In this document: positions 1-18,255 of the stretch, piece by piece
Numbering within the stretch: position 1 is the stretch's first letter
How the letters are laid out: each line of letters starts with the position of its first letter
From: Methanothermobacter thermautotrophicus str. Delta H
GTDB taxonomy: Archaea; Methanobacteriota; Methanobacteria; Methanobacteriales; Methanothermobacteraceae
Assembly: GCF_000008645.1 (NCBI RefSeq)
Contig: NC_000916.1
Location: forward strand, 270,001 to 302,000
Length of the DNA: 32,000 nucleotides
Direction of reading: 5' to 3'
Notes under the pieces: generated by a model
Databases searched by the model: none
Told to the model about the DNA's origin: nothing
The model's input: the letters and a program-made list of their open reading frames with translations, nothing else
Translations under genes and position numbers: made by a program

Positions 1-1
1 A

Positions 2-1974: not shown

Positions 1975-1976
1975 GG

Positions 1977-2486
1977 ATGGTTAAAATGTCTGATGTATGG
2001 TCTCTTACTAACTTTTACATGTCTCTAAAAGAAAACGAAAGAATCTTATTCCACCCATTCCCTTTTAGATACCCTCTAGTTTTTTTGATAATATTATACT
2101 TTGCTTTTTCAAATTTTTTGTATGAATACCTCGATTTAATAAATAATAAGCTTTCTGTAATATCATTGGTAGCGGAGCATGAGGGATCGATTCAGGGGTT
2201 TGTGTTTATATCAAATATTAAAGAACGGAAGGTTGCTAAAAATTTTGGTATAGTTGTGGGGAGACGTTGGCGAGGTCGGGGAATTGGAAGGAACCTTGCT
2301 GATGCTATGATTGATATCTGTAAAAAAGAAGGAATTAATGAGATACATTTAACTGTGATGGCCAAAAACAAATCTGCAATCTCATTATATAAAAAATTAG
2401 GATTTGAGGTTACCGAATATCATGAAAAAAGAGAAAGATGGGGAGGTAAATTCTATCCTGATTATAGTATGGTTTTCTGGGGCTGA
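1977..2486 (+). CDS. GNAT-family N-acetyltransferase
   Basis: The acetyl-CoA motif is VVGRRWRGRGIGRNLADAMI...SAISLYKKLGFE. I prefer ATG 1977 to the in-frame TTG 1965 used by the ORF track; the start is uncertain. Confidence 0.75.
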   Translation: MVKMSDVWSLTNFYMSLKENERILFHPFPFRYPLVFLIILYFAFSNFLYEYLDLINNKLSVISLVAEHEGSIQGFVFISNIKERKVAKNFGIVVGRRWRGRGIGRNLADAMIDICKKEGINEIHLTVMAKNKSAISLYKKLGFEVTEYHEKRERWGGKFYPDYSMVFWG

Positions 2487-2490
2487 TCCT

Positions 2491-3396: not shown

Positions 3397-3433
3397 CTCT
3401 TGATCAATCAAAACTTGATTTCTGGGTGAATCC

Positions 3434-4639: not shown

Positions 4640-6720
4640 GAAAGGACATACTCTACATGCTACTTTTACTTTTGATCACGGACCTATCAATCATTGCAGA
4701 TATTCCTGTTTTAAGGCAGTCATTACCCTTCATATTCTTTACAATTATTCCAGGATATCTTCTGCTTGGTATTCTGAAGTTCAAGGTTGAACTGATCGAT
4801 GGCTCCGTTATTGCAGCAGCTCTCAGCATATTCCTCATGATGATGACTGGACTCATCATAAACAGTTTTTATCCTCTAATAATGAGGCCACTTTCACTCC
4901 TACCCATACTTTCAGCCATTAATCTGCTCATCATTGCATTGATGGTGATTTATCATTTGAGGGGTGAAGAACCGTTAAACCTTAAAGCTTCAGGTAACCT
5001 CTCCACGGCACTTTCATCCCTCCTTTTTCCTGTTTTAACGGTTATTGGATCATACCTTATGAATAAATACTCTGTTAACACAGTTCTATTACTTGTTTTG
5101 CTGTTTATACCAGTTTACATAATCCTTTTAGAAGTTTTCAAGAAAAAGATCGGACCAGCAACATATCCAGTAGCTATATTCAGCATCTCCCTATCCCTTC
5201 TTATCATGAATGGTCTGCCATCAAATTATCTCATTGGTAGGGACATACACTGGGAGTTCTATTTATTCAGAAAGGCTCTTATGGCTCATCACTGGGACAT
5301 GCACGTTGGATCCTATAATGCATACAATGCCTGTCTCTCTGTCACCGTTCTACCGGTAATCTACAAGGTGCTCCTTAACGTCCCAGAGGTTTACATCTTC
5401 AAGTTCTATTATGGATTTATAGGCGCCCTCATGCCACTCCCGGTTTACCTGATATCAGAGAGGATACTCAAAAGGAGTGATTATGGATTCTATGCCACTC
5501 TTCTTTTCATTTTCCAGTTCTCGTTCATTTACATACTTGGGTGGTGCAGACAGCTTGTAGCCCTCCTTTTCTTCGCTGCAGCCGTCATGGTCCTTACGGG
5601 GGATATGAGGCGATCCCATAAGAAACTCCTGTTCGTGGTTTTCATGGTGGGGACTGTTCTATCACACTACACGACGGCCTATGTCTTCTTTTTCCTCGTG
5701 GCACTCATACCCATCCTGGTCAGGGTCATGAAAAGACTTAAGGTCCCGGATGATTCCAGGGGCTTCTTCGCAGCATCCCTTGCAGTTCTGTTCTTTGTGG
5801 TTGTATTCGCATGGTATGCCCAGGCCACAGGAGCCCCATTTAAATCAGCAGTCTCATTCTTCACAAAGACCTTGAGGAGCATGTCTGAATTCTTCAGCGC
5901 TGATATGAGGAACAACTCTGAACTTGCGGTTGTGGGGATAGGCATCTCAAATTTCCCAAACCTTCTGAGCACCCTTGTCCATGATACAGTCTTTGCACTG
6001 ATCGGTGCCGGTGCGCTTGCAGTTATTTTTAAGGAGGAGTACCGTCAGGGGAGGGAATACCTTGCAGCTGTCATTCTCTGTATGGGAATTCTTGTAGCAT
6101 TCATTGCCCTTCCCTTTGTCTCAAAGGGTTATGGGGGGCCCCGGCTCTTCACACAGTTACTTGTGATACTGGCTCCCCTGTTTATTACTGGTATTGATGC
6201 GTTGACTGGTTTCATAGGAAGGGTGAGGTGGAGGATCCCATCAATCATTGTACTCCTTATCCTGCTCTTCTCATGCACAACCTATCTTAACTATCATTTC
6301 GCAGGGATACCCTACTCCTATGCCTATGATGATGGTGGTGAGAGACGCTATGAGACATTCATCTATGATAATGAAGTTACCGGTGCTCTATGGCTTAGCA
6401 ACCATTACAATGAAACTTCAGTGATACACGGCGACAAAATGATATACTCAAGGATAATATACGGTTTCAGTACTTATCCTAGGGTAGATAGGGAATTCTT
6501 CAATGGGACAGATACAGAAACTGGCGGTTACGTATATCTGACACACTTCAATTTATATCAACGTCTCGTATTTCTGGATTATCCCTTAGCACCTCCCCGC
6601 GTTGTTAATGGGGCTCTTAAGTTGGATAATGTTGAATCGATTAATAATTACAAGGATCTGATTGTTAATATGAGCACAATTTATGATAACGGAGGATCAA
6701 GGGTTTTAATAGTCGCATGA
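4636..6720 (+). CDS. Polytopic membrane protein with C-terminal soluble domain (GT-C-like/DUF2206-like; candidate glycan polymerase or membrane glycosyltransferase)
   Basis: 694 aa. Hydrophobic segments run through about aa 1-560, followed by a soluble tail of about 130 aa. An ATGA overlap links it to the upstream GT4. No WWDYG AglB motif is present. The family assignment is from memory of the architecture only. Confidence 0.45.
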   Translation: MRKDILYMLLLLLITDLSIIADIPVLRQSLPFIFFTIIPGYLLLGILKFKVELIDGSVIAAALSIFLMMMTGLIINSFYPLIMRPLSLLPILSAINLLIIALMVIYHLRGEEPLNLKASGNLSTALSSLLFPVLTVIGSYLMNKYSVNTVLLLVLLFIPVYIILLEVFKKKIGPATYPVAIFSISLSLLIMNGLPSNYLIGRDIHWEFYLFRKALMAHHWDMHVGSYNAYNACLSVTVLPVIYKVLLNVPEVYIFKFYYGFIGALMPLPVYLISERILKRSDYGFYATLLFIFQFSFIYILGWCRQLVALLFFAAAVMVLTGDMRRSHKKLLFVVFMVGTVLSHYTTAYVFFFLVALIPILVRVMKRLKVPDDSRGFFAASLAVLFFVVVFAWYAQATGAPFKSAVSFFTKTLRSMSEFFSADMRNNSELAVVGIGISNFPNLLSTLVHDTVFALIGAGALAVIFKEEYRQGREYLAAVILCMGILVAFIALPFVSKGYGGPRLFTQLLVILAPLFITGIDALTGFIGRVRWRIPSIIVLLILLFSCTTYLNYHFAGIPYSYAYDDGGERRYETFIYDNEVTGALWLSNHYNETSVIHGDKMIYSRIIYGFSTYPRVDREFFNGTDTETGGYVYLTHFNLYQRLVFLDYPLAPPRVVNGALKLDNVESINNYKDLIVNMSTIYDNGGSRVLIVA

Positions 6721-6956
6721 TTTTTTGTATCTGGTAAAATCGGGCTTTGTAAAAATATAAGTGATTTTCTTTTGTTTTATTTTTGGCTTGGCTAAGGTTA
6801 GGGAGCAGTAGAATTCTTTAGGAACAAATACTGAGGATTCCTCATGTGAACTTCCATTCTACATTTAGATTAGGATTCGAAAGGAGATTATATAAACTTC
6901 AAAAAGTAATGTATCGATGATACAATCGTTTATGGGATCTTAAGGAGGAGGCGAAT

Positions 6957-8159
6957 TTGGTGAAATTCTTGGTTTTGGGTGTCAATAAAGATAACAAAGG
7001 CAATGAAGCCCTTGTGAAGTCAACCGTTGCAACAATAAAGTCCTTGATTGAAAATTGCAATTTTGTGTTTGTGGGTGTTAGAAATGAAAAGATTAAAGTT
7101 GATAATTCCTATTATTCTGTTTTAGAAAACCCCACTTATGAAATGAGTTTAAAGAAACCTTTAATGGTTTTGGGATCATTATTCCTACTTCTAAAAATTT
7201 TTCTATTTAAAAGGTTAAAAATGGAGATGAAATTTGAAAATAATATTATTTTAAAAAATATTCAGGAAGCCGATGTTTTAATTAACACTGGCGGCGACCA
7301 TCTCTCGGGGGAATATGGAAGGTCGATTATAATAACACTTGTTAATCTTCTGTACGCCATTCTCTTAGATAAACCTGTTGTATTGTACTCTGAGAGTTTG
7401 GGCTATCCTAAAAATAGATGTCTTGGATTCCTGCTAAATTATGTTCTCGAAAGGTCTTCTTTAATATTAGTAAGAGAACCCAAATCCTATGAATATCTTC
7501 AGAATAGTTTAAAATCAAAAAATTATTACCTAACAGCCGATTCGGCATTTTTATTGAATCCTTCTTCAAGGAACCAAAAAAACGAAAATGATAACCATGT
7601 CATAGGTTTTAATGTGAGCCCCTTAATAACAAATTTTGCTAAATCTCTTGATATTCTTAAACTATCCATAGATACAATCGATTTCCTCCTTAAAAACAAG
7701 AATGTGAATGTTTTACTGGTTCCCCATGTATACGGTGAGGACTCTGACCTTAAGATCCTCTCTAAAATTTATGAACATTTTGATTCAGAGAGGCTTTTAC
7801 TTATAGATAAAGAATATGATGCCGAGGAACTTAAATCAATTATAGGTCAGTGTGATCTCTTCATAGGCGCCAGGATGCATGCAACCATTGCAGCAACCTC
7901 AATGTTCGTACCCACCGTTGGGATAGCATACAGCCACAAGATGCATGGTATCATAGGCGAGATGCTAGGCCTGGAAGATTATATTATAGATATCGAGGAT
8001 CTCAACTCTGAAATCTTAATAGAGAAGACATTAAAGGCATGGGAGAACCGGGAGGAAATACAGGACCACCTCAGAAAGGTCATCCCTGAGGTTAAAATGA
8101 AAGCATGGAAGAATGGAGAGCTTGTTAAGGAACTATGCGACTCACTTGGAATCTCCTAA
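6957..8159 (+). CDS. Polysaccharide pyruvyl transferase (CsaB/WcaK-like)
   Basis: 400 aa. The motif CDLFIGARMHATIAATSMFVPTVGIAYSHKMHGI is typical of the family. AGGAGGAG lies upstream of the TTG/GTG start at 6957/6960. Confidence 0.75.
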   Translation: MVKFLVLGVNKDNKGNEALVKSTVATIKSLIENCNFVFVGVRNEKIKVDNSYYSVLENPTYEMSLKKPLMVLGSLFLLLKIFLFKRLKMEMKFENNIILKNIQEADVLINTGGDHLSGEYGRSIIITLVNLLYAILLDKPVVLYSESLGYPKNRCLGFLLNYVLERSSLILVREPKSYEYLQNSLKSKNYYLTADSAFLLNPSSRNQKNENDNHVIGFNVSPLITNFAKSLDILKLSIDTIDFLLKNKNVNVLLVPHVYGEDSDLKILSKIYEHFDSERLLLIDKEYDAEELKSIIGQCDLFIGARMHATIAATSMFVPTVGIAYSHKMHGIIGEMLGLEDYIIDIEDLNSEILIEKTLKAWENREEIQDHLRKVIPEVKMKAWKNGELVKELCDSLGIS

Positions 8160-9362
8160 AAAATCCATTCTTGCCTTTAGAGCTACAATCATAGAATAGA
8201 AAAAGATATACCTCCTTTTAATGGTCCATGGGATCTTCAACCGTGATGGTTCAAATGATAGGATGATTCTGTCAATGAAATCTATCTCAGGAAAACTCCC
8301 ATTATACATGGACCTTCTGCACAACTTTTTCTTCATGTAAATATTATATATCTGTGAGAGGAGTGCCTTTTCAGGTTTAATCTTATCCATCTCACATATA
8401 CCACCTTTCAGGATTCCGGCGAACTTCTCAGGCCATTTTCTAATGATTACAAGTGTCCTCCCTTTCTTTTCGTCTTTGAGTTCCTTGAGCCAGGGATCTG
8501 CAAAGGAGATGTCTGAGAGTTCTGCCATATGATCAGCGCATAGCCTGCATCTCTCAGGCATGAATAACTGCCCGAACCCGGATCCCCAGTACTCAGGTAG
8601 TAGTAGTAGGTCACCTGATTCTGTTTCAACCCTCAGACTCCCGGGCCAGCCCTCACCACGGTACCTTATGGACTTAACGTCCCCTGGATCAACACCAAGC
8701 CTTTCAAGGAGAAACTCCGTCGCCCTGAAACTTGGTGCATGATTGCAGACAATCCCCAGATGATAAACTATCCTCTCCCTCAGTTTTCTGCTGATCACCT
8801 CAGCCTTCCGCACCCCATGGATGTGGCAGGGCAGACCCACAACAGCGTACCTCCCCGGCACCTCAAGTATTTCTTTGAGGGCAACGTTGGCGGGTACGGG
8901 ACAGTACTTGGATCCCCTGCTCTCGATGATCTCCGAAGGCGTCCTTGCAATGAAGGGTTCAGGTTCAAGGGGCCTCTCGGGATTCATACGGGTCACAAGG
9001 GCGCCATCGATGAGGCCCTCCTCCAGTAGATAAATCAGGATCTGGCTTATCATACCACCGGAGGACGCACCATACCTGAGTTCATCATCACGGCTGTGGG
9101 CAATGTAGCACTCCTCATAATTACCCATCAGCATATCATCAGGTTCCCTTCCAAAAACCCTCATGTTGAGGTCAGTGAAGTCAACCCCCACTCCGGGGCA
9201 GACCCTCAGGCAGACACCACATCCATCACACTCACCATCAACAAGGGGTTCATAGACACCCCTATCATGATCTATTCTCATCACAACACTCTCAAGGGGG
9301 CACATCGCCGCACAGGTTCCGCAGCCAGTGCAGAGGTCCCCAACGTCGCCGACATTCTTCAT
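8142..9362 (-). CDS. FrhB/FdhB-like (coenzyme F420 hydrogenase beta-subunit family) Fe-S flavoprotein
   Basis: There are two ferredoxin-type motifs, CTGCGTCAAMCP and CDGCGVCLRVCPG. They are followed by RYGASSGGMISQILIYLLEEGLIDGALV, typical of the FrhB N-domain. Its start overlaps the stop of the upstream flippase gene (9359..10792) by 4 bp (9359-9362). Confidence 0.75.
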   Translation of the reverse strand: MKNVGDVGDLCTGCGTCAAMCPLESVVMRIDHDRGVYEPLVDGECDGCGVCLRVCPGVGVDFTDLNMRVFGREPDDMLMGNYEECYIAHSRDDELRYGASSGGMISQILIYLLEEGLIDGALVTRMNPERPLEPEPFIARTPSEIIESRGSKYCPVPANVALKEILEVPGRYAVVGLPCHIHGVRKAEVISRKLRERIVYHLGIVCNHAPSFRATEFLLERLGVDPGDVKSIRYRGEGWPGSLRVETESGDLLLLPEYWGSGFGQLFMPERCRLCADHMAELSDISFADPWLKELKDEKKGRTLVIIRKWPEKFAGILKGGICEMDKIKPEKALLSQIYNIYMKKKLCRRSMYNGSFPEIDFIDRIILSFEPSRLKIPWTIKRRYIFFYSMIVALKARMDFLGDSK

Positions 9363-10792
9363 GTATTCCTCCCCAGAAGGTTCATTAAAAGGGCCCTGTC
9401 CTCCTCTCTGAACTCACGCAGAAGGATGAGGGATATGAGGTAGATTAAAGCTGCTGCGCCTATCACCAGCAGCAGGTTGATCTCCCTGAGGGGGTAGATC
9501 ATCAGGGCCATGAGGGCTGATGCTGCAGCAGGTTTGATGAACTCCCGGTTCAGCTTCACATCCCCATGGGCTTTACCTATATAGTAGAGGAAGAGGATGT
9601 AGAGGAGGAGCTCAGAAAGCACCGTTGCAGCAGCAGCGCCGATATAACTGTAGTATGGTATGAGTATCATATTAAGGACTATGTTGAAAGCTGCACTTAT
9701 ACCAACACTAAGCATCCGGTACCCTTGCCGGTCAATGGAACTCAGAAGGGTCCCTGTTATGGTACTCACAAGCCGTATCGGGATGAAGAGTGCGAGTATC
9801 TGGAATGCAGGCACCGCTCCAGAGTATCCGCCGGCATAGAAAAGGCCTATGAATCTATCTGCAAGGACTAGGCATCCTGCAGCAACAGGGAAACCGGCGA
9901 TTGCAAGGTACCTCGAGGATATCCTTGTGAAGCCACTCAGCGACCCGGCATCCTCCCGGAAGTACCTTGACATGACCGGGTAGACCGCTGCAGACACCAT
10001 ACCAGCCACGATCATGCTGAGGGCCAGAAGAGGGTTGTAGGCAGCATTGTAGATACCCACCGCAACGTCATCCCTGAGAAGGCCGAGAAGAACAGTGTCA
10101 ATCTTAAAAAAGAAGACTGCGAAGAGTGAATTGAGACCGAAGGGCAGACCCATCAGGAGTAGTTTCTTCTGGAGCCCAGTATCAATGGATCTGGAAGGTC
10201 TTATGAACCTTCTGAAGCTCAGGGATGCTGCAACAGCAATATCCAGTATCCCTGCAAATACATAGACCCAGGCAACGACCATCAAACCGTACCCCATGAT
10301 GAGCACACCCAGTCCCAGGGTTACTATGAACAGCCTCTCTATGATCTGGAAGAGTGCAACGTACTCCATCCTCTCCCAGGCCTGGAAGAGTGACAGGTAT
10401 GTGCCTGAAACCGTTAAAAGAATATTGTAGATTCCAAAGAGATACAGGAGGATCGATGCATCACTAGACAGGTTAAAGGTCCACGCCAGGACGGCGATGA
10501 GGACGAATGTGAGGATTGAGAGGGGTATCTTCAGGAACACGGCATTGTTAACATAGTATGATGAAAGATCCCTTTCACGTGCAATCTCCCTTACGAGGAG
10601 CTGGTTAACCCCGAGATCGGTGAAGGTTACAAGTAGTGTTGTGAGGGAGAATGCGAAATTATATTTACCGAAACCGGCCTCTCCCAGGAACCTTGCAAGG
10701 TATATCATGAATACAAATGACATTAGGGCTGTTAATATCTGGGCACTCCCGGTAACACCGATGTTCTTGACTATCCTCTGGACCTGGTTCAT
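9359..10792 (-). CDS. MOP-superfamily polysaccharide flippase (Wzx/RfbX-like)
   Basis: 477 aa and about 12-14 hydrophobic segments. The N-terminus KNIGVTGSAQILTALMSFVFMIYLARFLGEAGFGKYNFAFSL is typical of polysaccharide biosynthesis/export proteins. Confidence 0.8.
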   Translation of the reverse strand: MNQVQRIVKNIGVTGSAQILTALMSFVFMIYLARFLGEAGFGKYNFAFSLTTLLVTFTDLGVNQLLVREIARERDLSSYYVNNAVFLKIPLSILTFVLIAVLAWTFNLSSDASILLYLFGIYNILLTVSGTYLSLFQAWERMEYVALFQIIERLFIVTLGLGVLIMGYGLMVVAWVYVFAGILDIAVAASLSFRRFIRPSRSIDTGLQKKLLLMGLPFGLNSLFAVFFFKIDTVLLGLLRDDVAVGIYNAAYNPLLALSMIVAGMVSAAVYPVMSRYFREDAGSLSGFTRISSRYLAIAGFPVAAGCLVLADRFIGLFYAGGYSGAVPAFQILALFIPIRLVSTITGTLLSSIDRQGYRMLSVGISAAFNIVLNMILIPYYSYIGAAAATVLSELLLYILFLYYIGKAHGDVKLNREFIKPAAASALMALMIYPLREINLLLVIGAAALIYLISLILLREFREEDRALLMNLLGRNT

Positions 10793-11018
10793 ATTTTAGC
10801 ACCTGAAACATGATTAAAGCAGATACAGACTCTGGCTATCCTGAAGATAAACTGGGAACGGTGCGGATCACAGTCGCCATTCAGTATCTGAAGTATAAAA
10901 GCTGTCGCATCATATCTCTGGCTTTTCATTAATATAACTGTTCATGGCCTTTTGGGGATCCTTCATCCCTGGGCCTCAATGACCCTCTCAGCGGCAGACC
11001 CTAACCTCTAAGATTATA

Positions 11019-12005
11019 TCACCCATAGAGTATCCTGCGGGGTTTCTCATTATCAAATCTCCCCCTGAGGCCATCAGAATAAGCGCTCAATATAAATCTG
11101 ACCCTCCTGAAGGGTTTCTCACGGATACCTGTAATTATCTGAGCTGCGACCGATAGGAGGATTGCTCTGACCATGAAAATGAATAAACGTGCCCTGCCCA
11201 TTTCCTTCCTCCGGAGCCATATGGAATTTCTGACACCGTAATACCGGAGCCACAGTTTATCGTAGGGTACCACCGGGATCTCCCTGCCGAAAAGACCCTT
11301 CGTGAGGTTACCCCTCTCCGCGGCTTCCTTGTGCAGAATCAGACTCCCGGGTACCAGGATGATCTTACCGGTACTCCTCAACCTCAGACAGTACTCCACA
11401 TCATCGTAATGCAGGAAGAATTCCTTCCTTGGAAATCCTATCTCCCGGACCGAATCAGAGTTTATCAGGATCCCCACAAAGGATGCATGATCAATTTCAA
11501 GGGTCTCCTCCCTTAAATCATCCTCTGTCACAGGCCTCACAAAGGTTCCGAAGCTGTCGAAGTCAAAGAAGCCCCTGTGTATGTACTGGGGCCTGCCATC
11601 CGGGGAGACCTTGAGGTTGGCAAGGGCCGCAGTATCATCATCCGCATATCTGAGCAGGCCCTGAAGACTATCAGGGAGTGGTTCAGCATCATCATCCATG
11701 AGCCATATCCAGTCGTATCCATCATGGAAGGCTCTCTTCACGCCCTCATGGAATCCACCGGCCCCACCCGTGTTAACGGGCAGTCTGACATACCTGATAA
11801 CGATTTCACTCCCATCAAGGGGGTTCTCAATCACTGCACCGTCCCTGTAACCCCTGCTCCTGAGGAGTTCAGGTGTCCCATCTGTTGAGGCATTGTCTAT
11901 GATGTAAATTGCATCTAAGGGTCCTGTCTGCCTCCGCAGGGCTTCAAGACACTCCACGAGTAAATCCTTACGGTTGTATGTTACGACAACGGCACAGACC
12001 CTCAA
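11019..12005 (-). CDS. Glycosyltransferase family 2 (GT2-A; candidate galactofuranosyltransferase by context)
   Basis: VVVTYNRKDLLVECLEALRRQT...IIDNASTDGT plus the DxD-type WIWLMDDDAEP. It sits directly downstream of glf. The substrate is inferred from context only. Confidence 0.8.
   Translation of the reverse strand: MRVCAVVVTYNRKDLLVECLEALRRQTGPLDAIYIIDNASTDGTPELLRSRGYRDGAVIENPLDGSEIVIRYVRLPVNTGGAGGFHEGVKRAFHDGYDWIWLMDDDAEPLPDSLQGLLRYADDDTAALANLKVSPDGRPQYIHRGFFDFDSFGTFVRPVTEDDLREETLEIDHASFVGILINSDSVREIGFPRKEFFLHYDDVEYCLRLRSTGKIILVPGSLILHKEAAERGNLTKGLFGREIPVVPYDKLWLRYYGVRNSIWLRRKEMGRARLFIFMVRAILLSVAAQIITGIREKPFRRVRFILSAYSDGLRGRFDNEKPRRILYG
11871..12004. repeat. Copy 1 of a 134-bp near-identical segment shared by the two GT2 genes
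   Basis: Hand alignment to 18121-18254 at offset 6250 bp gives 11 mismatches in 134 positions. Both copies have the same orientation. Confidence 0.85.
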
Positions 12006-12053
12006 GGCATCATCTCCTCACGCTTAACTCCCTTGCATGTGAAGACAGACCAC

Positions 12054-13196
12054 TCAAAGTATCCTCTCCTCAAAGACCTGGAGGGCCCGCAGGACGATAT
12101 CATCCATGTCATAGTAGCGGTACTCTGCAAGCCTCCCGACCAGTATAAGGTCCTCAAATTCTCTGGCAAGTTCAAGGTATCTTTCATACTTCGCCCGGGT
12201 CTCATCTGTGAATACAGGGTAGCAGGCCTCATTCTCCCCGTCTATGTGTGTGCAGGGGTACTCCCTCAGCAGCGTCGTCCTCCTGGAATCTGTGGGGTGG
12301 AGGTGTTTGAACTCGGTGATCCTGGTGAAGTCATAGTCGTTTGGGTAGTTGACGGTGGCAACCTCCTGGAACCACTCCGTGTCAGCGGATTCGAACTGGA
12401 GGTCCAGGGACCTGTAGGGGAGCTCACCATACCTGTAGCCGAAGAGCTCATCGATCTTACCCGTGAATATGACCTTCCCCCTGAACTCGGAGCCCATGAA
12501 GTGGATCTGCCCATCCCTCAGCTCGAGGACCTCATGGTGGCTGGTGTTGAGCATAAGCTTGATGCAGGGGTGGTCCAGCATCCTCTCAACCATGGCTGTG
12601 TAGCCGTCCCGTGGCACGGCCTGGTACCTGTCAGTGAAGTAGCGGTCATCCCGTGAGAGGACCACTGGCACCCTCCCTGTGACCTCGGGGTCCATCTCCT
12701 CTGGTTTCAGGCCCCACTGCTTCCTGGTGTAGTTGAGGAAGACCTTCCTGTAGACGTAGTCTGCAAGGAACTCTATGTCAGGGTCCCCTGACTCCCTGAG
12801 TTCCAGTATGGGGACCCTGGCACCGAAGCCGTACCTCCCTACCAGTTTCTCCTCGAGCCTCTCAGCCAGTGACTGGGGGAGGAGCATCCTCAGCGAGTTG
12901 AGGTTGAATGGCAGGGGGACCTTTGCCCCGTCTATGAATCCCAGGACACGGTGCTGGTACTCCCTCCATTCGCTGAACCCTGAGAGGTAATGGAAGACCT
13001 CCTCACTGTCGGTGTGGAGGATGTGCGGTCCGTACCGGTGCACCAGTATCCCGTTATCGTCAACCTCATCGTAGCAGTTACCACCAACATGTCTTCTTCT
13101 CTCAACAACCAGCACCCTCTCTCCGAGCTGGCTGGCTATCCTCTCTGCCATGACGGAACCTGCAAGGCCGGCGCCGACAATGATGTACTTGAACAT
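12054..13196 (-). CDS. glf: UDP-galactopyranose mutase
   Basis: 380 aa. It has the FAD-binding N-terminus MFKYIIVGAGLAGSVMAERIA...VLVVERRRHVGGNCYD. Length and overall layout match Glf. Confidence 0.85.
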   Translation of the reverse strand: MFKYIIVGAGLAGSVMAERIASQLGERVLVVERRRHVGGNCYDEVDDNGILVHRYGPHILHTDSEEVFHYLSGFSEWREYQHRVLGFIDGAKVPLPFNLNSLRMLLPQSLAERLEEKLVGRYGFGARVPILELRESGDPDIEFLADYVYRKVFLNYTRKQWGLKPEEMDPEVTGRVPVVLSRDDRYFTDRYQAVPRDGYTAMVERMLDHPCIKLMLNTSHHEVLELRDGQIHFMGSEFRGKVIFTGKIDELFGYRYGELPYRSLDLQFESADTEWFQEVATVNYPNDYDFTRITEFKHLHPTDSRRTTLLREYPCTHIDGENEACYPVFTDETRAKYERYLELAREFEDLILVGRLAEYRYYDMDDIVLRALQVFEERIL

Positions 13197-13206
13197 GACA
13201 ATGCAC

Positions 13207-14100
13207 CTAAATTTTCAGGTAATTCATTCCTATTGATTCCTTCTCAAGTAGCCACTTCAATTTTTTTATCTCAGCATCATCGGGGGCTGAGAAATCAGGC
13301 ATCTGGAGGTTCAGACTCCGGTACTTCTCAAGTCCCAGCCTGTGTATCCCGAGGACCTCAATGTGATCCACCATGTTCTCCCTGAGGAATCTGATGAGGG
13401 CCCGTATGTTCTCCCTGTTGAATGTGTAGGGCTTCACCGCCGGGAACCTCACTGTGAAGCTGCCATCAGAGATCCTTTCAAAGTTCCTCCTGAAAACCTC
13501 AGGGTCGCCGCCGGTGACCTCCCGGCACCCTGCATCATCCAGTATCTTCACATCAACCAGGAAGAGGTCCACCTCACCCTTTAACTTCTCAACCGCTTCG
13601 CCTGGGGCGAAGAGTGATGTTTCAACTGCTGCGGGGACTTCACCTATCCTGCGGGTGACACTGAGTATGCCATCGGCCTGGAGGAGGGGCTCACCCCCCG
13701 AGAAGGTGACACCGCCACCGGTGGAGCTGTAGTAGTCAAGGTCCCTGAGGATGACCTCTGCAACGTCATCTGCTCCTGTGAACTCACCGTAGACACCCAT
13801 CGCAGCTGAGGGGCAGCTTCCGGCGCACTCATGGTGTTCAGGGAACCTGAATATGTCCCGGGGCTTATCAAGGAAGCTGCATCTCTTCACACATTCAAGG
13901 CAGCCGATGCATTTCTCCTCTTTGAAGTAGACCTCGGGTTCTCCCCTTATATTTTCGGGGTTGCAGCACCAGGGGCACCGGAGGGTGCAGCCCTTGAGGA
14001 AAACTGTGGTCCTTATACCCGGACCATCATGGACGCTGAACCTCTGGATGCCGGTTATCAGGAGTTCATCCACTGTAACCACCATGCTCTGAGTATTCAA
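13207..14100 (-). CDS. Glycyl-radical enzyme activating protein (radical SAM)
   Basis: GIQRFSVHDGPGIRTTVFLKGCTLRCPWCCNPE carries the CX3CX2C radical-SAM motif. It also has the auxiliary ferredoxin motif CIGCLECVKRC plus ECAGSCP, and GGVTFSGGEPLLQ. The start may be ATG 14085 instead of 14100. Either start overlaps the GRE 3' end. Confidence 0.85.
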   Translation of the reverse strand: MNTQSMVVTVDELLITGIQRFSVHDGPGIRTTVFLKGCTLRCPWCCNPENIRGEPEVYFKEEKCIGCLECVKRCSFLDKPRDIFRFPEHHECAGSCPSAAMGVYGEFTGADDVAEVILRDLDYYSSTGGGVTFSGGEPLLQADGILSVTRRIGEVPAAVETSLFAPGEAVEKLKGEVDLFLVDVKILDDAGCREVTGGDPEVFRRNFERISDGSFTVRFPAVKPYTFNRENIRALIRFLRENMVDHIEVLGIHRLGLEKYRSLNLQMPDFSAPDDAEIKKLKWLLEKESIGMNYLKI

Positions 14101-15994
14101 GGGCCCTCCTGACTATTAACTCCCTGTACTCCTCTGGAAGGTCCCTGAAGTAGGCGCTGAATCCCCAGACCCTCACTATGAGGTCAGGGTAGAGTTCAGG
14201 GTTGTCCCTTGCCCGCAGGAGTACTTCAGGGTCCAGGACATTGACCTGGAGCTGCATAACACCCCTACGGAGACCTGTCCTTATGAGTGCCATGAATTCA
14301 TTCCCTGCACGGTCAAGGAATGGCCTGTCGACCATTATATCAACAACACCCCCATTGAAGGCCTTCAGGTAGTCCAGGGCTGCTGCAAAGTTTAGGACCT
14401 CGGTGTAGGACATGCCGTCAGTGAATTTAAGGGGGGAGATGTGGACGCCGAGGGGTTCACCTGCGTGTCTCCCATCAAAGGATGCCCCGGTGGATTCCCC
14501 CAGTGTTATGTAGACCGGGGAACTTAAACCGAACTTGTATCTCCCCCCGAGTTTATCATGCAGCATCTGGATGATGGTGTTTGTCAGTTCCACCACCTCA
14601 TCCTCGTCCATACCATACCCGGGAGAAATCAACTCGAGGCCCACCCTGAGTGCCTCGGCGGACCTGAAATCATCCCTGAGCACATCTTCAACCTCGGCGA
14701 TGTTCATCGTCTTCTCATCATAGCAGAGCCTCCTGATGTTGAGGAGGGAGTTTATCAGGTTCCCCATCCCCACGGTCAGCACCCCGTTGATGGAGTAGCC
14801 TGCACCATCACAGATATCCCTGGAGTTCCTGATACAGTCAGGGAAGAGGAGTGAAAGGAGGGGTGATGGTTCATTCCTGACCGACTCCACATTCTCCATA
14901 ACATCATCGATGTACCTGTGCAGCTCCTGCCGGTACCTCTCAAGCAGTTCACTGAATTCACCCCTGAACCCGTGGAGGGCATCCTCCAGGGGCTCCAGGA
15001 GGTTCAGATTTGCCAGGTTGTTCTGGTCAGAGGACCTCCCAGGGATGAGTGGCTCCCAGCAGGCAGATGTCGCGTACTCCAGGGCGTCTGATCTGCTGTA
15101 GTACTGACTGAGGGCGTCCACGATGACATCGTCATTGGAGAAGAGGGGATAACCGAGGCCCTCCCTGAGGCACCGGTAGCTGAGCTCCCATACATCATCA
15201 GGTGTTCTGCTGTTAACCCTGAGCACAACCTTGGGGTCGGGTATTCTGAGTTCCAGCATGACCTCCAGGAATATCCGTGTGAGGTCGTTGTATTCCCCTC
15301 CGAGGACAATCACCTGTCCTGTGTCCCCGGGGAGGACGTTGCTCTTGAACTCATAGCAGGAGGAGACGCTCAGGATGAAGTCCCTTATGAGTTCACGGGA
15401 CTCCTCAGGGTCCTCATGGTACTCCTTAAGGATGCTGTCGAGCCTCCCAAGGCCGATGAGGGGGTGCCCGTACATCCAGATGAGGGAATTCATGAACAGT
15501 ATTGACTGCAGTGCCTCCCCCAGGGTTTCTGCCGGCTTCAGGGGCACCCTTCTGAGTTTATCTGCGATTTCAGGTGAGTGCTCAGCGCACCTCTCAAGGT
15601 AGAGCTTAACAGCCCCCAGGGCCCTTCTGAGGATATCCGGGTAACCCCCAGGCTCATCTTCTATCATCTCCTCAATACCCTCAAGGCCCCTCTCAACCAG
15701 GAGTCCGTAGTCAGGTGTGAGGTTTCCAAGGCGCCTGTAACCCTCTGTCTCCAGGACATGGATCCCGGTGTCTATACTGTAGAAGAACCTGTCACCGGGA
15801 TTGAAATGTATGCGGGAGTCCCTGCAGACCTTCTCAAGTTGATGGAGCCTTCTTTCAAGGATGTCCTTTTTGCTGGAGCTGATTATCCTCGTTTTAATGC
15901 AACCCAGGCCCTGCTTCCGGTATAAGGCATGATAGGCCCTTAAATAGGGGAAGAACGGTGTTCTCCTTGCGATCTTCAGCATGGTGTTCTTCAT
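14066..15994 (-). CDS. Compact glycyl-radical enzyme (PFL-superfamily; substrate unknown)
   Basis: The C-terminus LQVNVLDPEVLLRARDNPELYPDLIVRVWGFSAYF parallels the PflB glycyl-radical region (Gly611, codon 14162-14164). The Cys loop is TSACWEP (Cys312, codon 15059-15061). The conserved strand FDGRHAGEPLGVHISP is present. The protein is 642 aa. Confidence 0.8.
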   Translation of the reverse strand: MKNTMLKIARRTPFFPYLRAYHALYRKQGLGCIKTRIISSSKKDILERRLHQLEKVCRDSRIHFNPGDRFFYSIDTGIHVLETEGYRRLGNLTPDYGLLVERGLEGIEEMIEDEPGGYPDILRRALGAVKLYLERCAEHSPEIADKLRRVPLKPAETLGEALQSILFMNSLIWMYGHPLIGLGRLDSILKEYHEDPEESRELIRDFILSVSSCYEFKSNVLPGDTGQVIVLGGEYNDLTRIFLEVMLELRIPDPKVVLRVNSRTPDDVWELSYRCLREGLGYPLFSNDDVIVDALSQYYSRSDALEYATSACWEPLIPGRSSDQNNLANLNLLEPLEDALHGFRGEFSELLERYRQELHRYIDDVMENVESVRNEPSPLLSLLFPDCIRNSRDICDGAGYSINGVLTVGMGNLINSLLNIRRLCYDEKTMNIAEVEDVLRDDFRSAEALRVGLELISPGYGMDEDEVVELTNTIIQMLHDKLGGRYKFGLSSPVYITLGESTGASFDGRHAGEPLGVHISPLKFTDGMSYTEVLNFAAALDYLKAFNGGVVDIMVDRPFLDRAGNEFMALIRTGLRRGVMQLQVNVLDPEVLLRARDNPELYPDLIVRVWGFSAYFRDLPEEYRELIVRRALEYSEHGGYSG

Positions 15995-17253
15995 AGCACT
16001 CCCATCCTTCTGAGTATGATATACTCAATGATTCCGATAATGATTTCGGTGGTGACAACTGCAACCGCGGCACCCGCTGAGCCCAGGAGCATGACAAGTC
16101 CCAGGAGGAGACCGACATGAACCACACCTGCAAATATGACGATCCTCGTGAACTTCTCCTTGTAGCCGAAGGATACCAGCCCCTGGACACCCAGGATGTT
16201 GTTGGCACCGATTGCAAAGATTATGAAGACCAGTATCTGGAGGAGGGGGATGCTCTCATCATAGGATGGACCCGCAAGTATCCCCACGATGAGGGGTGCG
16301 AGGAAGACGAGGGCAACAGACAGCCCGAAGGTCAGGACCCCCATGAAGATCAGCATCTTCCTCAGCTCATACTTCGCCCTTTCACGGTCATCCTTCTGGA
16401 TCCTTGAGAAGTAAGGGTAGATGGCCTGACTTATGGGTGATACGATCCCCTGGAGGGCCCTGGTTATATCCTCTGCCACAGCATAGTATCCAAGGGTTGC
16501 GCTGCTCACAAGGAGTCCCAGTATGAAACGGTTGGATGTGGTGTAGAGGCTTATGGCCAGGGTTGAAATGAAGAGGTGCCACCCCTCAAGGAGCTGCTCC
16601 CTTATATCAGCAGGGGATGGAATCATGAATTTCACACCGAATTCCCTCATGACTATCCTCTGACTGTATAAACCAACGGCCATGAATCCCGCCGAGTTTA
16701 TGAGGGGCACGTAGAGGTAATCTCCGGGTCCCCGCACAGCAAGGAATATGAGTGCGGTGTAGATGAGGGAGCTCACTATCCTCAGGATGCTTATGTACCT
16801 CATCCTCTCAACTCCCTGGAAGAACCAGACCGGGAAGAGGAGGTTGCCCACAACGAGGCCGTAGGTGAAGATGTAGAGGAGGTAATCTGATCTGAACCTG
16901 TCGATCAGGAAGACCGTGACGAGCATGGCCATGAATGTCACTGCCAGGAGGATTGTCTTTGTTACCATAACCGAGCTGTAGATCAGGGACACCCTTTCAG
17001 TGTCATCACGGTGTATTGAGATCTCCCTGGTGGCTGAGAAGTTGAAGCCATAGTCTGTCAGTATCTGGAAGTAGGTTATGAAGGCAACAGCGAAGGCGAC
17101 CTTACCGAAGTTGGCAGGACCCAGGACCCTGGTGAGGTAGGGGAATGTGATGAGGGGGAGGAGGTACTGCACGAGCTGTATACCTGTGAGTGAGATTATG
17201 TTATCCAGGACACGTCGATGTTCGCTGTTTGATAATGGTGATGGTATCTTCAT
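15991..17253 (-). CDS. MOP-superfamily flippase (Wzx-like O-unit flippase)
   Basis: 420 aa and multi-TM. LVQYLLPLITFPYLTRVLGPANFGKVAFAVAFITYFQILTDYGFNFSATREIS is a typical Wzx N-terminus. AAGGATGAT lies upstream. The GRE start overlaps it by 4 bp. Confidence 0.8.
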   Translation of the reverse strand: MKIPSPLSNSEHRRVLDNIISLTGIQLVQYLLPLITFPYLTRVLGPANFGKVAFAVAFITYFQILTDYGFNFSATREISIHRDDTERVSLIYSSVMVTKTILLAVTFMAMLVTVFLIDRFRSDYLLYIFTYGLVVGNLLFPVWFFQGVERMRYISILRIVSSLIYTALIFLAVRGPGDYLYVPLINSAGFMAVGLYSQRIVMREFGVKFMIPSPADIREQLLEGWHLFISTLAISLYTTSNRFILGLLVSSATLGYYAVAEDITRALQGIVSPISQAIYPYFSRIQKDDRERAKYELRKMLIFMGVLTFGLSVALVFLAPLIVGILAGPSYDESIPLLQILVFIIFAIGANNILGVQGLVSFGYKEKFTRIVIFAGVVHVGLLLGLVMLLGSAGAAVAVVTTEIIIGIIEYIILRRMGVL

Positions 17254-17313
17254 TCAATCATCCTTTCTCTGATGAGTTAATCCCTATGAGGAATGCCGGG
17301 ACCTCCAGAAGTG

Positions 17314-18255
17314 TTAGAATTCTCCCGGCTTCACGGTTTTTCCCCTTTTGAGAGTATATCCCTCCCAAAAAGCCTTTAAGAGGTATTTGAAACCGGATGG
17401 TTTATATTTAAGGCATTGATAGGTGACGATAATGAGGGTCCGCAGGGGTCTTAAATACCTCACAAGGATGTTCTCTCCATACTTCCTATCCAGATAGATC
17501 ACATTCCTCAGATGATAGAACCCCTTCCAGTTGAAATCTGGCTCTGCAGCCACTTTTTTGATGAGCCTGGCCCCTGATACCATATAAATTGGCCCATAAT
17601 CCCGCAGCCTGATGGCGTAGTCTGTATCGTCTGCAATGATGAAGAGGCTTTTATCAGGGAATCCTATCCTTTCTATGGCTTCTCTCTTTATAAGGAGTCC
17701 CTCAAAGGATATGGCTGATATCTTAAAGTATTCCTCTTTAAGGTCATCATCAGTTATAAAATCGTATGTGAAGTGTTTGAGGGGATTTCTGAAGTTGAAA
17801 GTCTTTGTCTCACTAATGAAGAGCGAACCCTGGAAGAACCTCACAGGAGCAACTGCGGAAACATCTTCAGGAATTCTTTCAGAGGCTTTGAGAAGTTTTT
17901 CAAGGGTATATTCTTCTGGTTCAACGTCATCATCCATAAGCCATATCCAGTCGTATTCATCATGGAAGGCTCTTCTGACACCCTTATAGAATCCTCCGGC
18001 GCCTCCAGTATTTTCATTGAGCCGCACATAGACAATTTTCAGTGACCGCCCATGATGGTCCGGCAAGTTTTTCACGGACCCATCCGGGTCATCTATGTAG
18101 CCCCCCTCCATGAGTAGATGGGGTGTTCCATCTGTTGAGGCATTGTCTATGATGTAGATTGCATCTAATGGTCCTGTCTGCCTCCTCAGGGCTTCAAGGC
18201 ACTCCACGAGTAAATCCTTACGGTTGTATGTGACGACAACAGCACATATCTTCAT
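17314..18255 (-). CDS. Glycosyltransferase family 2 (GT2-B, paralog of 11019..12005)
   Basis: 43 of the first 45 aa are identical to GT2-A (MKICAVVVTYNRKDLLVECLEALRRQTGPLDAIYIIDNASTDGTP). It has WIWLMDDDVEP. GGAGAGATGA lies upstream of the ATG. The 3' two-thirds is visibly lower in GC than its neighbours. Confidence 0.8.
   Translation of the reverse strand: MKICAVVVTYNRKDLLVECLEALRRQTGPLDAIYIIDNASTDGTPHLLMEGGYIDDPDGSVKNLPDHHGRSLKIVYVRLNENTGGAGGFYKGVRRAFHDEYDWIWLMDDDVEPEEYTLEKLLKASERIPEDVSAVAPVRFFQGSLFISETKTFNFRNPLKHFTYDFITDDDLKEEYFKISAISFEGLLIKREAIERIGFPDKSLFIIADDTDYAIRLRDYGPIYMVSGARLIKKVAAEPDFNWKGFYHLRNVIYLDRKYGENILVRYLRPLRTLIIVTYQCLKYKPSGFKYLLKAFWEGYTLKRGKTVKPGEF
18121..18254. repeat. Copy 2 of the 134-bp near-identical segment shared by the two GT2 genes
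   Basis: See copy 1. A second short near-identical block aligns 17929-17973 with 11691-11735 (2 mismatches in 45) at offset 6238 bp. Confidence 0.85.

Follow-up and report, generated by a model that had tools for sequence, protein, structure and literature searches.

The compact glycyl radical enzyme (GRE) and activase encoded in a glycan operon of Methanothermobacter thermautotrophicus str. Delta H point to a radical reaction, sensitive to oxygen, in glycan biosynthesis, with galactofuranose (Galf) as the most likely substrate. The window, the 32,000-nucleotide stretch analysed here, carries the pair as part of a surface-polymer operon. The same arrangement recurs in gut anaerobes, and a glycan-biosynthetic radical step is therefore proposed. 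On a modest balance of the evidence the two proteins serve surface-glycan biosynthesis rather than fermentation and carry out a thiyl-radical, Glu-assisted step on a Galf unit, for which the best reading of the reaction type is a C–O elimination or an isomerisation. The chances are about even that the compact family defined by the CWE and RVWG motifs is a new class of glycan-tailoring GREs, sited at the membrane and making a deoxy-keto or rearranged furanose from lipid-linked or UDP-activated Galf.

Profile matches and a predicted structure confirm the 642-residue ORF as a GRE with an eliminase-type C-x-E loop. The ORF scores 189 bits against the Pfam PFL-like model (cut-off 24.3) and 48.7 bits against Gly_radical (cut-off 22.2; residues 518–616). 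The GRE hallmarks that an earlier note had read from the letters of the window are present where it placed them: the segment LQVNVLDPEVLLRARDNPELYPDLIVRVWGFSAYF with the Gly611 codon at 14162–14164, TSACWEP with the Cys312 codon at 15059–15061, and FDGRHAGEPLGVHISP at residues 506–521. In phmmer pairwise and profile alignments ACWEP falls on GCVEP (Cys433/Glu435) and VRVWGF on VRVAGY (Gly763) of glycerol dehydratase (GDH, 1r8w). ACWEP also aligns to GCVET of PflD, where Cys312 corresponds to Cys431. Cys312 and Gly611 thus map to the thiyl and radical positions as proposed, and the loop is of the Cys-x-Glu type and not the Cys-Cys type of pyruvate formate-lyase (PFL). The AF2 model (pLDDT 92.1, pTM 0.91), in which helices 2–10 and 15–34 have a lower pLDDT of 71–78, matches 1r8w, 5i2g, 8yjo and 8id0 in Foldseek with a TMq of 0.84–0.85. 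The superposition that had been suggested demonstrates, at the level of a model, the GRE fold, in which the Cys loop occupies the centre of a 10-stranded beta/alpha barrel, and the alignments demonstrate the predicted catalytic residues. The protein is 134–208 aa shorter than its solved full-length relatives (776–850 aa), in line with the short length noted earlier, and the whole family is similarly compact.

The GRE passes none of the curated NCBIfam equivalog cut-offs. TIGR01774 (PFL2-3) gives 214.5 bits (cut-off 678.2), the PflD-type model NF007437 164.9 bits against 1109, the PFL model TIGR01255 37.7 bits against 994, and TIGR04040 (YjjI) 27.4 bits against 498. PF11230 (DUF3029) matches residues 152–366 at 25.8 bits, covering about 200 of its 485 positions. 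Membership of the YjjI/DUF3029 family, which through E. coli YjjI–YjjW resembles the compact GRE in being shorter than canonical GREs and in having no settled function, was rejected on this marginal and partial match. PFL was rejected on the C-W-E loop, which offers no Cys-Cys pair, and on the low TIGR01255 score.

The glycerol and propanediol dehydratases (1R8W/1R9D, 5I2A/5I2G, 9RCO) share the CXE motif and provide both the best profile match (5.2e-96) and the best fold matches to the model (TMq 0.83–0.84). Their vicinal-diol substrate is a plausible analogy to the C5–C6 diol of Galf. However, the compact GRE is about 145 aa shorter than GDH, has Trp both between its Cys and Glu and ahead of the radical Gly, and has no aldehyde-processing or microcompartment genes at its loci. 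Profile-to-PDB alignment places LGNLTPDY of the compact family on GVGHVSVDY of GDH, GVGHVTVQY of propanediol dehydratase and GQGHIIMDF/GQGHIIIDY of PflD. In the profile alignment Ser282 and Asp447 of GDH are replaced by Leu179 and Asn326, and Tyr339 and Tyr640 fall in deleted segments; we take these four to be the substrate-binding residues of GDH in 1R9D. As Asn stands in place of the general-acid His and the binding residues are replaced or absent, diol-dehydratase chemistry is not simply transferable. A strict glycerol/propanediol dehydratase was rejected on the invariant Asn91 in place of His164, the loss of the binding residues and the TIGR01774 score. The earlier assignment to a dehydratase or eliminase type therefore holds for the CXE motif and fails for a strict diol dehydratase.

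PflD and YbiW (8ID0, 8YJO, 8ID7) resemble the compact GRE in both loops, with CXE at the Cys and RVxG at the Gly, and belong to its closest solved relatives. PflD (8id0) is the top pairwise match (2.3e-47) and the second in the profile search (2.6e-95), with a TMq of 0.85. Both enzymes act on a sugar via a thiyl and Glu-assisted ketyl mechanism, opening the ring C–O bond of an anhydro-hexitol-6-phosphate in catabolism. They differ in their length (776–826 aa), their catabolic role, the retained His of GQGHII and a PTS or aldolase gene context, as opposed to the glycan context found here. A PflD/YbiW equivalog was rejected on the NF007437 score, the replacement of the GQGH His by Asn and the missing catabolic partners. 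Archaeoglobus fulgidus PFL2 (2F3O), the one structurally characterised archaeal PFL-like GRE, is likewise an archaeal PFL2-type protein whose loop is of the CXE type and whose function is unsettled, both a dehydratase and an alkylsuccinate synthase having been argued for; it differs in its full length of 776 aa (pairwise 1.8e-42) and has no glycan context. The CXE motif is kept in all GRE 1,2-eliminases and isomerases, where the Glu hydrogen bonds to or deprotonates a substrate hydroxyl (2026 GRE review).

The compact family comprises otherwise uncharacterised proteins of 640–720 aa. Species-representative genomes carry about 250 of its loci, and it spans from the methanogen to hundreds of gut anaerobes. 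The family is recognised by the motifs ACWEP and RVWGF, by a cationic N-terminus and by an Asn that without exception replaces the general-acid His of the dehydratases and PflD. Across 100 homologues the ACWEP loop (Cys312, Glu314) and R608, W610, G611 and F612 do not vary, and V609 is conserved to 90% or more. Besides Gly611, Cys312 and Glu314, about 40 positions are invariant despite an overall identity of 35–45%. The N-terminal net charge has a family median of +12 and is at least +8 in 81% of members, compared with 0.4% of control 65-mers; no transmembrane helix was found in this segment. Homologues are labelled by NCBI/JGI as ‘pyruvate formate lyase family protein’ or ‘formate C-acetyltransferase’, and some by NCBI as ‘DUF3029 family protein’. 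A sister compact subfamily with the motifs ACWEF and RVWGW is found at catabolic-looking loci with Fe-ADH, NagA and NagB.

The genes of the operon are listed in Table 1. The flippase stop and the GRE start share ATGA at the nucleotide level, a 4-bp overlap. How far the GRE stop reaches into the activase gene depends on the start codon of the latter: 35 bp for TTG 14100, upstream of which AGGAGG stands at a spacing of 4 nt, and 20 bp for ATG 14085, which would give a protein of 292 aa. Glf starts 10 nt past the activase stop, so that the tight gene coupling seen in the earlier reading is borne out. The GT2 encoded first in the module has galactofuranosyltransferase GlfT1 as its best NCBIfam match (91.6 bits, below the 330 cut-off). 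The second GT2 also matches this model best, at 79.3 bits and likewise below 330, and its top PDB match is the galactofuranosyltransferase 9dtp (E 2.5e-6). Both proteins thus clearly resemble the family, at scores short of the curated threshold.

Table 1. Features of the GRE operon, numbered from the first position of the window
Feature	Coordinates	Strand	Evidence or remark
GT2 glycosyltransferase, GlfT1-like, first gene of module	17314..18255	-	Pfam Glycos_transf_2 99 bits
Wzx-type (MOP) flippase	15991..17253	-	Pfam Polysacc_synt 293.6 bits
Compact GRE, 642 aa	14066..15994	-	Pfam PFL-like and Gly_radical, AlphaFold model, Foldseek
Cationic N-terminal segment, residues 1–69, net charge +12	15788..15994	-	Replaces longer N-terminal helical region of canonical GREs
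Asn91, at position of GDH general-acid His164	15722..15724	-	Invariant (n=100), profile-to-PDB alignment
Cys loop A311-C312-W313-E314-P315, predicted thiyl Cys and catalytic-base Glu	15050..15064	-	Alignment, n=100 members
Glycyl-radical loop R608-V-W-G611-F612	14159..14173	-	Family alignment (n=100), alignment to RVAGY of GDH/PflD
GRE-activating radical-SAM enzyme, 297 aa from TTG 14100	13207..14100	-	TIGR02494
Radical-SAM cluster motif C38-x3-C42-x2-C45 (CTLRCPWC)	13966..13989	-	77/77 family activases
Ferredoxin-like insert C64-x2-C67-x2-C70-x3-C74 (CIGCLECVKRC), then C92-x3-C96	13813..13911	-	Weak Pfam Fer4 matches
UDP-galactopyranose mutase (Glf)	12054..13196	-	TIGR00031 627.7 bits (cut-off 303.75)
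Second GlfT1-like GT2	11019..12005	-	Pfam GT2 94 bits
Second Wzx-type flippase	9359..10792	-	Pfam Polysacc_synt 242.5 bits
FrhB/FdhB-like Fe-S flavoprotein, last gene on strand	8142..9362	-	Pfam FrhB_FdhB_N and _C, 4Fe-4S dicluster
Polysaccharide pyruvyl transferase, convergent with FrhB-like gene	6957..8159	+	Pfam PS_pyruv_trans 150.5 bits

The activase scores 317.5 bits against TIGR02494 (cut-off 174) and 76.9 bits against the YjjW model (cut-off 250). Its insert contains one complete ferredoxin-type motif only, followed by a CX3C pair. Such an insert is found in about 12 of 77 family activases, those of the window's clade, and is wholly absent in the other 65. The description ‘typical non-PFL activase’ is consequently apt for this clade and does not extend to the family at large.

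Gene neighbourhoods were counted at 83 loci overall and at 44 loci with long flanks, for which Glf was scored within 8 kb. The activase is encoded at 81/83 loci, always on the strand of the GRE and directly downstream of it in 62, and at all 44 long-flank loci; a cognate activase is thereby demonstrated on gene content. A glycosyltransferase or Wzx is present at 81/83 loci, and the homologues do therefore co-occur with glycan genes in other genomes, as the earlier note had required. The Wzx flippase itself is found at 61/83 loci and lies immediately upstream of the GRE in 36 of the 83, and Glf is on the strand of the GRE at 45/83. Within the long-flank set Glf is present at 29 loci, on the same strand every time and mostly 2–3 genes downstream, and is absent within 8 kb at the remaining 15. 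Several Glf-less loci carry GT111 Galf-transferases, and DUF4422 has the GT111 UDP-Galf transferase fold (PMC12269835). Glf or GT111 (DUF4422) is found at 34/44 long-flank loci, and a Galf marker of some kind at 41/44 if GlfT1-like GT2 proteins are counted.

Methanothermobacter CaT2, the spirochaete Breznakiella and an archaeal relative at 45% identity all show exactly the order Wzx-GRE-activase-Glf, and GRE, activase and Glf are contiguous at every locus of the window's clade with adequate flanks. One whole GRE subclade has a small ORF (c11) or IspD/LicD genes as its partners instead, and IspD-type cytidylyltransferases, LicD and an SDR accompany one GRE subclade. The glf/GT2/flippase setting described for the window is hence conserved from Methanothermobacter to spirochaetes and Clostridia, with the qualification that Glf is not universal. 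The clustered neighbour families include no conserved reductase or aminotransferase by which a carbonyl product could be processed, and no aldehyde dehydrogenase, microcompartment protein or transporter.

The GRE is also naturally fused to its neighbours. GT2-GRE fusions occur in P0136, P0137 and P0162; the cluster of P0137 numbers 146, and 988-aa forms lie on dozens of contigs. Wzx-GRE fusions (P0183, P0200) turn up repeatedly, each on independent contigs. The GT2 domain of P0137 is 32% identical to the first GT2 of the window and 38% to the second. A GT2-GRE fusion locus also encodes an activase and Glf, and at L086 an FrhB-like protein fused to a pyruvyl transferase stands beside a GT2-GRE fusion. 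The association of the GRE with glycan genes is not accidental, the synteny being conserved, and the recurrent GT2-GRE and Wzx-GRE fusions reinforce the link.

The operon resembles described Galf assembly systems (Mycobacterium GlfT1/2, Klebsiella WbbM/WbbO and Kingella PamABC) in combining a UDP-Galp mutase with glycosyltransferases of the GT2/GT111 Galf-transferase type and export. Those systems contain no radical enzyme, whereas here a GRE-activase pair lies between flippase and Glf and is sometimes fused to a GT2. No precedent tying a GRE to galactofuranose, Glf or polysaccharide synthesis was found in the literature searched, in keeping with the earlier note; GREs that act on sugars do exist (PflD, YbiW), and these are catabolic. 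Polysaccharide, glycan and UDP are nowhere mentioned in a review of the superfamily (June 2026 GRE superfamily review). The characterised PFL-like GREs are all catabolic and all bacterial, and the archaeal ones, which have no assigned function, are singled out as a gap (2026 GRE review).

If the proposal is correct, the enzyme would bring GREs into glycan biosynthesis for the first time and give a first function to an archaeal PFL-like GRE, and radical C–H activation would join the known sugar-tailoring chemistry. Methanogens and many Firmicutes of the gut and rumen would then be expected to carry a new and strictly anaerobic modification of their surface sugars, which would bear on recognition by phages, the immune system and lectins. 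The furanose product would be one so far unrecognised in the surface polysaccharides of methanogens and gut/rumen anaerobes. The small size of the GRE and an activase mostly free of auxiliary clusters should make in vitro work easier, and the existing UDP-Galf, Glf and GlfT assays make the Galf hypothesis directly testable.

The following scheme is our inference as to what the substrate is, whether it is used as a lipid-linked or as a nucleotide sugar, at which position it reacts and what is formed. Glf would produce UDP-galactofuranose and a GlfT-like GT2 would add Galf to a lipid-linked repeat unit. The GRE would next modify the furanose unit at the cytoplasmic face of the membrane, tethered by its cationic N-terminus, and the Wzx flippase would finally export the modified unit. 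Proximity to the membrane is suggested by the cationic N-terminus and the Wzx fusions, and the evidence favouring a lipid-linked over a nucleotide sugar comprises the fusions and the N-terminal charge. A less likely variant has UDP-Galf itself as the substrate. The activase would create the Gly611 radical, which would be relayed to Cys312. The Cys312 thiyl would take a carbinol hydrogen while Glu314 deprotonates the neighbouring hydroxyl, and the ketyl radical would then eject the beta C–O substituent. The likeliest position is the exocyclic C5–C6 vicinal diol, which is present in the furanose form only, and the reaction would leave a furanose residue in deoxy-keto (or deoxy-aldehydo) form.

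It is possible, if rather doubtful, that the enzyme works in the same glycan setting as a redox-neutral isomerase or epimerase, converting for example Galf at C5 to L-altrofuranose, or as a PflD-like catalyst of C–O ring rearrangement, without net elimination. The ranking of PflD, a sugar-ring isomerase, in both searches would agree with this, as would the His to Asn replacement, which fits a reaction with no leaving hydroxyl to be protonated, and the lack of a conserved downstream reductase for a carbonyl product among the clustered neighbour families. L-Altrose, the C5 epimer of D-galactose, has been reported from Butyrivibrio EPS, and to our knowledge its biosynthesis is unexplained. However, with a single catalytic Cys the hydrogen would go back on the face that it came from, which speaks against epimerisation; the invariant Glu314 favours eliminase-like ketyl-radical formation and beta-scission, and PflD and YbiW retain the His that the compact family has lost.

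A substrate other than Galf is unlikely. It could be another glycan block with a terminal vicinal diol or phosphodiester (a glycerol- or ribitol-phosphate substituent), or a non-sugar decoration precursor, Glf being just a frequent neighbour. The Glf-less third of the long-flank loci, the subclade with IspD-type cytidylyltransferases, LicD and SDR, and the pyruvyl-transferase and FrhB-like genes in both the window and the fusion locus would be consistent with this. Against it stand the contiguity of GRE, activase and Glf throughout the window's clade, the GT111 Galf-transferases at several Glf-less loci and the GlfT-like nature of the fused GT2. The putative pocket residues, too, do not vary between clades, which speaks for a single substrate moiety shared by all.

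It is very improbable that the protein is an ordinary catabolic GRE (a glycerol/propanediol dehydratase, PFL or PflD-like enzyme) that neighbours glycan genes by chance. The database labels of homologues, the fold matches to diol dehydratases and the loci of the sister subfamily would fit such a role. They are opposed by equivalog scores far below cut-off (TIGR01774, NF007437, TIGR01255), by the loss of the PFL Cys-Cys pair and of the dehydratase His, Ser, Tyr and Asp, by glycan synteny and fusions across two domains of life, and by the absence of catabolic partner families among the clustered neighbours. That the protein is dead or purely structural, as its shortened form and reduced canonical dimer-interface region might suggest, is scarcely credible given the invariance of Gly611, Cys312, Glu314 and the further positions at such low identity, and an always co-encoded, dedicated activase with an intact CX3CX2C motif.

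The product of the operon's PFL-like gene is a genuine glycyl radical enzyme (GRE): its catalytic Gly, Cys and Glu are all intact, and it has a dedicated activase (AE). The Pfam PFL-like (189 bits) and Gly_radical (48.7 bits) models both match. By phmmer, and with a 100-sequence profile searched against PDB sequences, the motif A-C312-W-E314-P aligns with the Cys loop G-C-V-E-P of glycerol dehydratase (GDH, pdb 1r8w; Cys433/Glu435) and with the PflD loop, and V-R-V-W-G611-F aligns with the R-V-A-G-Y glycyl loop; the mapping of the active site is thus alignment-derived. An AlphaFold2 model built from 100 homologues (pLDDT 92.1, pTM 0.91) superimposes on GDH, propanediol dehydratase, PflD, CutC and HypD with query-normalised TM-scores of 0.80–0.85. 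The adjacent radical-SAM protein scores 317.5 bits against TIGR02494 (GRE-activating protein; cut-off 174). Domains, catalytic residues and fold therefore agree with the assignments of enzyme, Cys and glycyl loops and activase made in the earlier note, whose peptide motifs and codon coordinates were all correct.

Tight minus-strand gene series (8142–18255), its repeats and two plus-strand genes beside it
Feature	Position	Strand
Pyruvyl transferase	6957–8159	+
FrhB/FdhB-like Fe-S flavoprotein	8142–9362	-
Second Wzx-type flippase	9359–10792	-
Second GT2	11019–12005	-
Glf (UDP-galactopyranose mutase)	12054–13196	-
Activase, radical-SAM, 297 aa	13207–14100	-
GRE, PFL-like, 642 aa	14066–15994	-
Wzx-type flippase	15991–17253	-
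GT2	17314–18255	-
CobN/Mg-chelatase-like protein, 1561 aa	19742–24427	+
GT2 5'-end direct repeat (87% nt identity)	11846–12004 and 18096–18254	
Second GT2 repeat stretch (84% nt identity)	11679–11774 and 17917–18012	

The operon junctions also proved to be as claimed. An ATGA overlap joins the flippase and GRE genes, and 10 nt separate the activase stop from the Glf start. The activase gene overlaps the end of the GRE gene by 35 bp if its translation begins at TTG 14100, which has AGGAGG 4 nt upstream, or by 20 bp from the alternative ATG 14085. Direct repeats 6.25 kb apart form the 5' ends of the two GT2 genes, so that the N-terminal ~47 residues of the two proteins are near-identical. The repeats and the two Wzx genes suggest that a GT2-Wzx module was duplicated or recombined, with the GRE-AE-Glf block in one copy only.

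All NCBIfam equivalog and subfamily matches of the GRE fall far under their cut-offs: TIGR01774 (PFL2-3) 214 bits against 678, PflD-type NF007437 165 against 1109, HypD 162 against 1100, CutC 142 against 1050, PFL TIGR01255 38 against 994 and YjjI TIGR04040 27 against 498. These curated scores rule out the PFL, YjjI/DUF3029, CutC, HypD, HpsG/HpfG and decarboxylase equivalogs; of the models named for checking in the earlier note, the general GRE domains were matched but YjjI/DUF3029 membership failed.

The profile alignment points to a changed substrate pocket. GDH Ser282 is replaced by Leu179 and Asp447 by Asn326, and the segments carrying Tyr339 and Tyr640 are absent from the compact family to which the GRE belongs; we take these four to be substrate-binding residues of GDH. 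The position of GDH His164 (G-V-G-H-V-S-V-D-Y), also His in propanediol dehydratase and both PflD structures, is occupied by an invariant Asn91 (L-G-N-L-T-P-D-Y); in GDH this His protonates the leaving hydroxyl (PMC13450708). An invariant Trp separates Cys from Glu, where Val is found elsewhere, and another precedes the radical Gly, where Ala or Ser is found elsewhere. As Gly, Cys and Glu are retained and the GDH-type residues replaced, the radical relay and catalytic base are kept but the pocket appears to be rebuilt. The predicted pocket is rich in carboxamide, hydroxyl and acid groups (N91, D224, Q227, N325, N326, S491). Closest among known enzymes are the B12-independent diol dehydratases and PflD/YbiW, which are GRE isomerases that open sugar rings. 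Although the GRE differs from both in the His, the binding residues, the curated scores and the genomic context, its radical chemistry is probably like theirs.

The compact family is extensive. A word-indexed search (E ≤ 1e-20) returned 771 clusters, the top matches all being 640–720 residues long. These belong to Methanothermobacter (CaT2, K4), Methanobacterium, Breznakiella and Lachnospiraceae, and their only names are 'pyruvate formate lyase family' or 'DUF3029 family'. A full HMM search covered 1.84 billion representatives. Of the full-length proteins inspected among the first ~140 of 150 listed matches, nearly all carry the same Cys- and glycyl-loop signature (CWE/RVWG), and canonical ~800-residue GREs (GCVE, RVSGY, GH..DY) enter only after these. 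Scanning one genome per species gave 254 loci with a compact GRE, in Methanobacteriales, many gut and rumen Clostridia and Bacilli, Selenomonas, Synergistaceae, Aeromonadales, Erysipelotrichaceae and one spirochaete. Among genomes, a Methanothermobacter MAG comes nearest, at 96% identity, and exact look-up in public assemblies found no identical copy of the protein.

Compared with canonical GREs, the compact ones lack ~70 residues at the N-terminus and several internal segments. Since the canonical dimer interface is formed by the helices preceding the barrel (PMC13450708), this interface is probably reduced in the compact enzymes. The N-terminus instead carries a poorly conserved, strongly cationic segment of ~70 residues (median net charge +12; at least +8 in 81% of members against 0.4% of control segments). 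A transmembrane anchor is ruled out by its low hydropathy, above 1.6 in only 2 of 99 members, and its amphipathic moment does not differ from that of controls, so only the charge signal was used. The activases of the family are themselves unusual for GREs of the CXE (eliminase/isomerase) type, as the ferredoxin-like auxiliary-cluster insert is wholly absent in 65 of 77 (loci L001–L085); one complete CX2CX2CX3C motif plus a CX3C is kept only in the window's clade. PFL-AE likewise has no such insert.

The GRE is an obligate part of glycan-assembly loci and is strongly associated with markers of galactofuranose (Galf). The order Wzx-GRE-AE-Glf-GT2 is shared by Methanothermobacter CaT2 and an archaeal metagenome relative of 45% identity; Breznakiella has the order Wzx-GRE-AE-Glf, but a different transferase after Glf. 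For the neighbourhood survey proposed in the earlier note, ORFs of 85 loci (83 non-redundant) were clustered and combined with tblastn, 44 loci having at least 6 kb on both sides. The activase is present at 81 of the 83 loci (the other two are truncated contigs) and at all 44 well-flanked ones, always on the same strand and directly downstream in 62. Some glycosyltransferase or Wzx also occurs at 81/83, and Wzx itself at 61, directly upstream of the GRE in 36. Glf, always on the same strand and mostly two to three genes downstream, is found at 45/83 loci (29/44 well-flanked), a count that becomes 53 (34/44) with the GT111 (DUF4422) Galf-transferase and 68 (41/44) with GlfT1-like GT2s as well. 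The DUF4422 fold is that of the GT111 UDP-Galf transferases Klebsiella WbbM and Kingella PamA (PMC12269835).

In a neighbour-joining tree Glf linkage tracks GRE phylogeny, being found in the window's clade and in a large Clostridia/Bacilli/Methanobrevibacter clade. One subclade instead has IspD, LicD and SDR genes, or a small unannotated ORF (c11, ~135 residues) that replaces Wzx/Glf as the immediate neighbour (L034, L037, L054, L066, L067, L071, L072, L075, L077–L079). In most of these loci the GRE follows it directly, and in L077 it lies two genes upstream; it has no Pfam match and only a faint resemblance (24 bits) to a NeuD-type Rossmann N-terminal domain. The Methanobrevibacter GREs (L043, L062, L083) nest within the Clostridia/Bacilli clade, suggesting that in gut habitats the module passed between the domains of life. 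Two Wzx-GRE-AE(-Glf) loci occur per genome in Breznakiella homolactica (CP067089.2, ~2.88 and 2.91 Mb; L005 and L042) and in one MAG (L036 and L039), so that one organism employs the module in more than one polysaccharide cluster. An 8-kb contig binned as Bipolaricaulota (L007), with GRE, AE, Glf and Wzx 56–77% identical to the Methanothermobacter genes, is either mis-binned or the result of transfer.

Natural fusions join the GRE to its neighbours. The HMM search recovered GT2-GRE proteins of about 990 residues (P0136, P0137, P0162) and Wzx-GRE proteins (P0183, 1125 residues; P0200, 1053 residues), and in P0145 (815 residues) a c11-related domain forms residues 1–150, N-terminal to the GRE. 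Gene-calling or frameshift artefacts are ruled out, as the same full-length forms lie on many independent contigs and one fusion locus proved intact when read. The 90% cluster of P0137 comprises 146 members, with 988-residue forms on dozens of independent contigs, and each Wzx-GRE form turns up again in independent assemblies. The fused GT2 is 32–38% identical to the two window GT2s, and all have the galactofuranosyltransferase GlfT1 as best match, under threshold; the best solved relative of the window GT2 is the galactofuranosyltransferase 9dtp (E 2.5e-6). The GT2-GRE fusion locus, L086, is an ABC-transporter-type cell-wall polymer cluster that also holds an activase and Glf. Directly after its activase, pyruvyl transferase and FrhB-like domains form one 870-residue protein (13809–16421); in the window the corresponding genes converge with an 18 bp overlap. 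The recurrent pair may possibly provide enolpyruvyl transfer plus reduction.

We infer that the GRE acts in the cytoplasm, after glycosyl transfer and before flipping, the sole position that fits both kinds of fusion, the gene order and the cationic N-terminus. Its substrate would be the Galf unit. Galactose in the furanose form, not the pyranose, exposes an exocyclic C5–C6 vicinal diol, like a 1-O-substituted glycerol, which would explain the dependence on Glf. In the CXE class the thiyl abstracts hydrogen from the carbinol carbon, the hydroxyl then loses its proton to Glu, and beta-scission of the ketyl radical breaks a C-O, C-N or C-S bond (PMC13450708). The product, at a best guess, would be a deoxy-keto or deoxy-aldehydo furanose. 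The Asn in place of His, and the fact that no downstream reductase is conserved at GRE loci, leave room for a redox-neutral isomerisation, and the Glf-less subclade does so for polyol-phosphate substrates.

In the literature searched, no GRE was found tied to Galf, Glf or polysaccharide biosynthesis beyond incidental co-mentions. A June 2026 GRE review has no such class and nowhere mentions polysaccharide, glycan or UDP, and it gives every PFL-like GRE of characterised function as bacterial (PMC13450708). The GRE-activase pair combines a reduced architecture and a rebuilt pocket with a putative anabolic glycan role; the family is widespread and the glycan hypothesis directly testable.

A sister compact subfamily (P0224, L088 1447–3513; P0239, L089 242–2263) has ACWEF[IV]/RVWGWS loops, 650–700 residues and Asn at the His164 position too. 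Its loci look catabolic (Fe-ADH, activase, NagB, NagA, SASA esterase, GDSL esterase, AraC), and the subfamily may represent an uncharacterised GRE related to amino sugars or sialic acid. Within the window, GC content is 0.32–0.45 over 1–8000, which holds a DegT aminotransferase fragment, GT4, GNAT, GT4, DUF2206 and the pyruvyl transferase, against about 0.5–0.56 over 8001–32000, suggesting that horizontal transfer brought in part of the glycan cluster. The CobN/Mg-chelatase-like protein encoded beside the cluster has a signal-like segment at the N-terminus, a stretch rich in Ser, Thr and Gly, and a hydrophobic anchor at the C-terminus, and its gene is conserved in the corresponding position of Methanothermobacter CaT2 (L001; Pfam CobN-Mg_chel).
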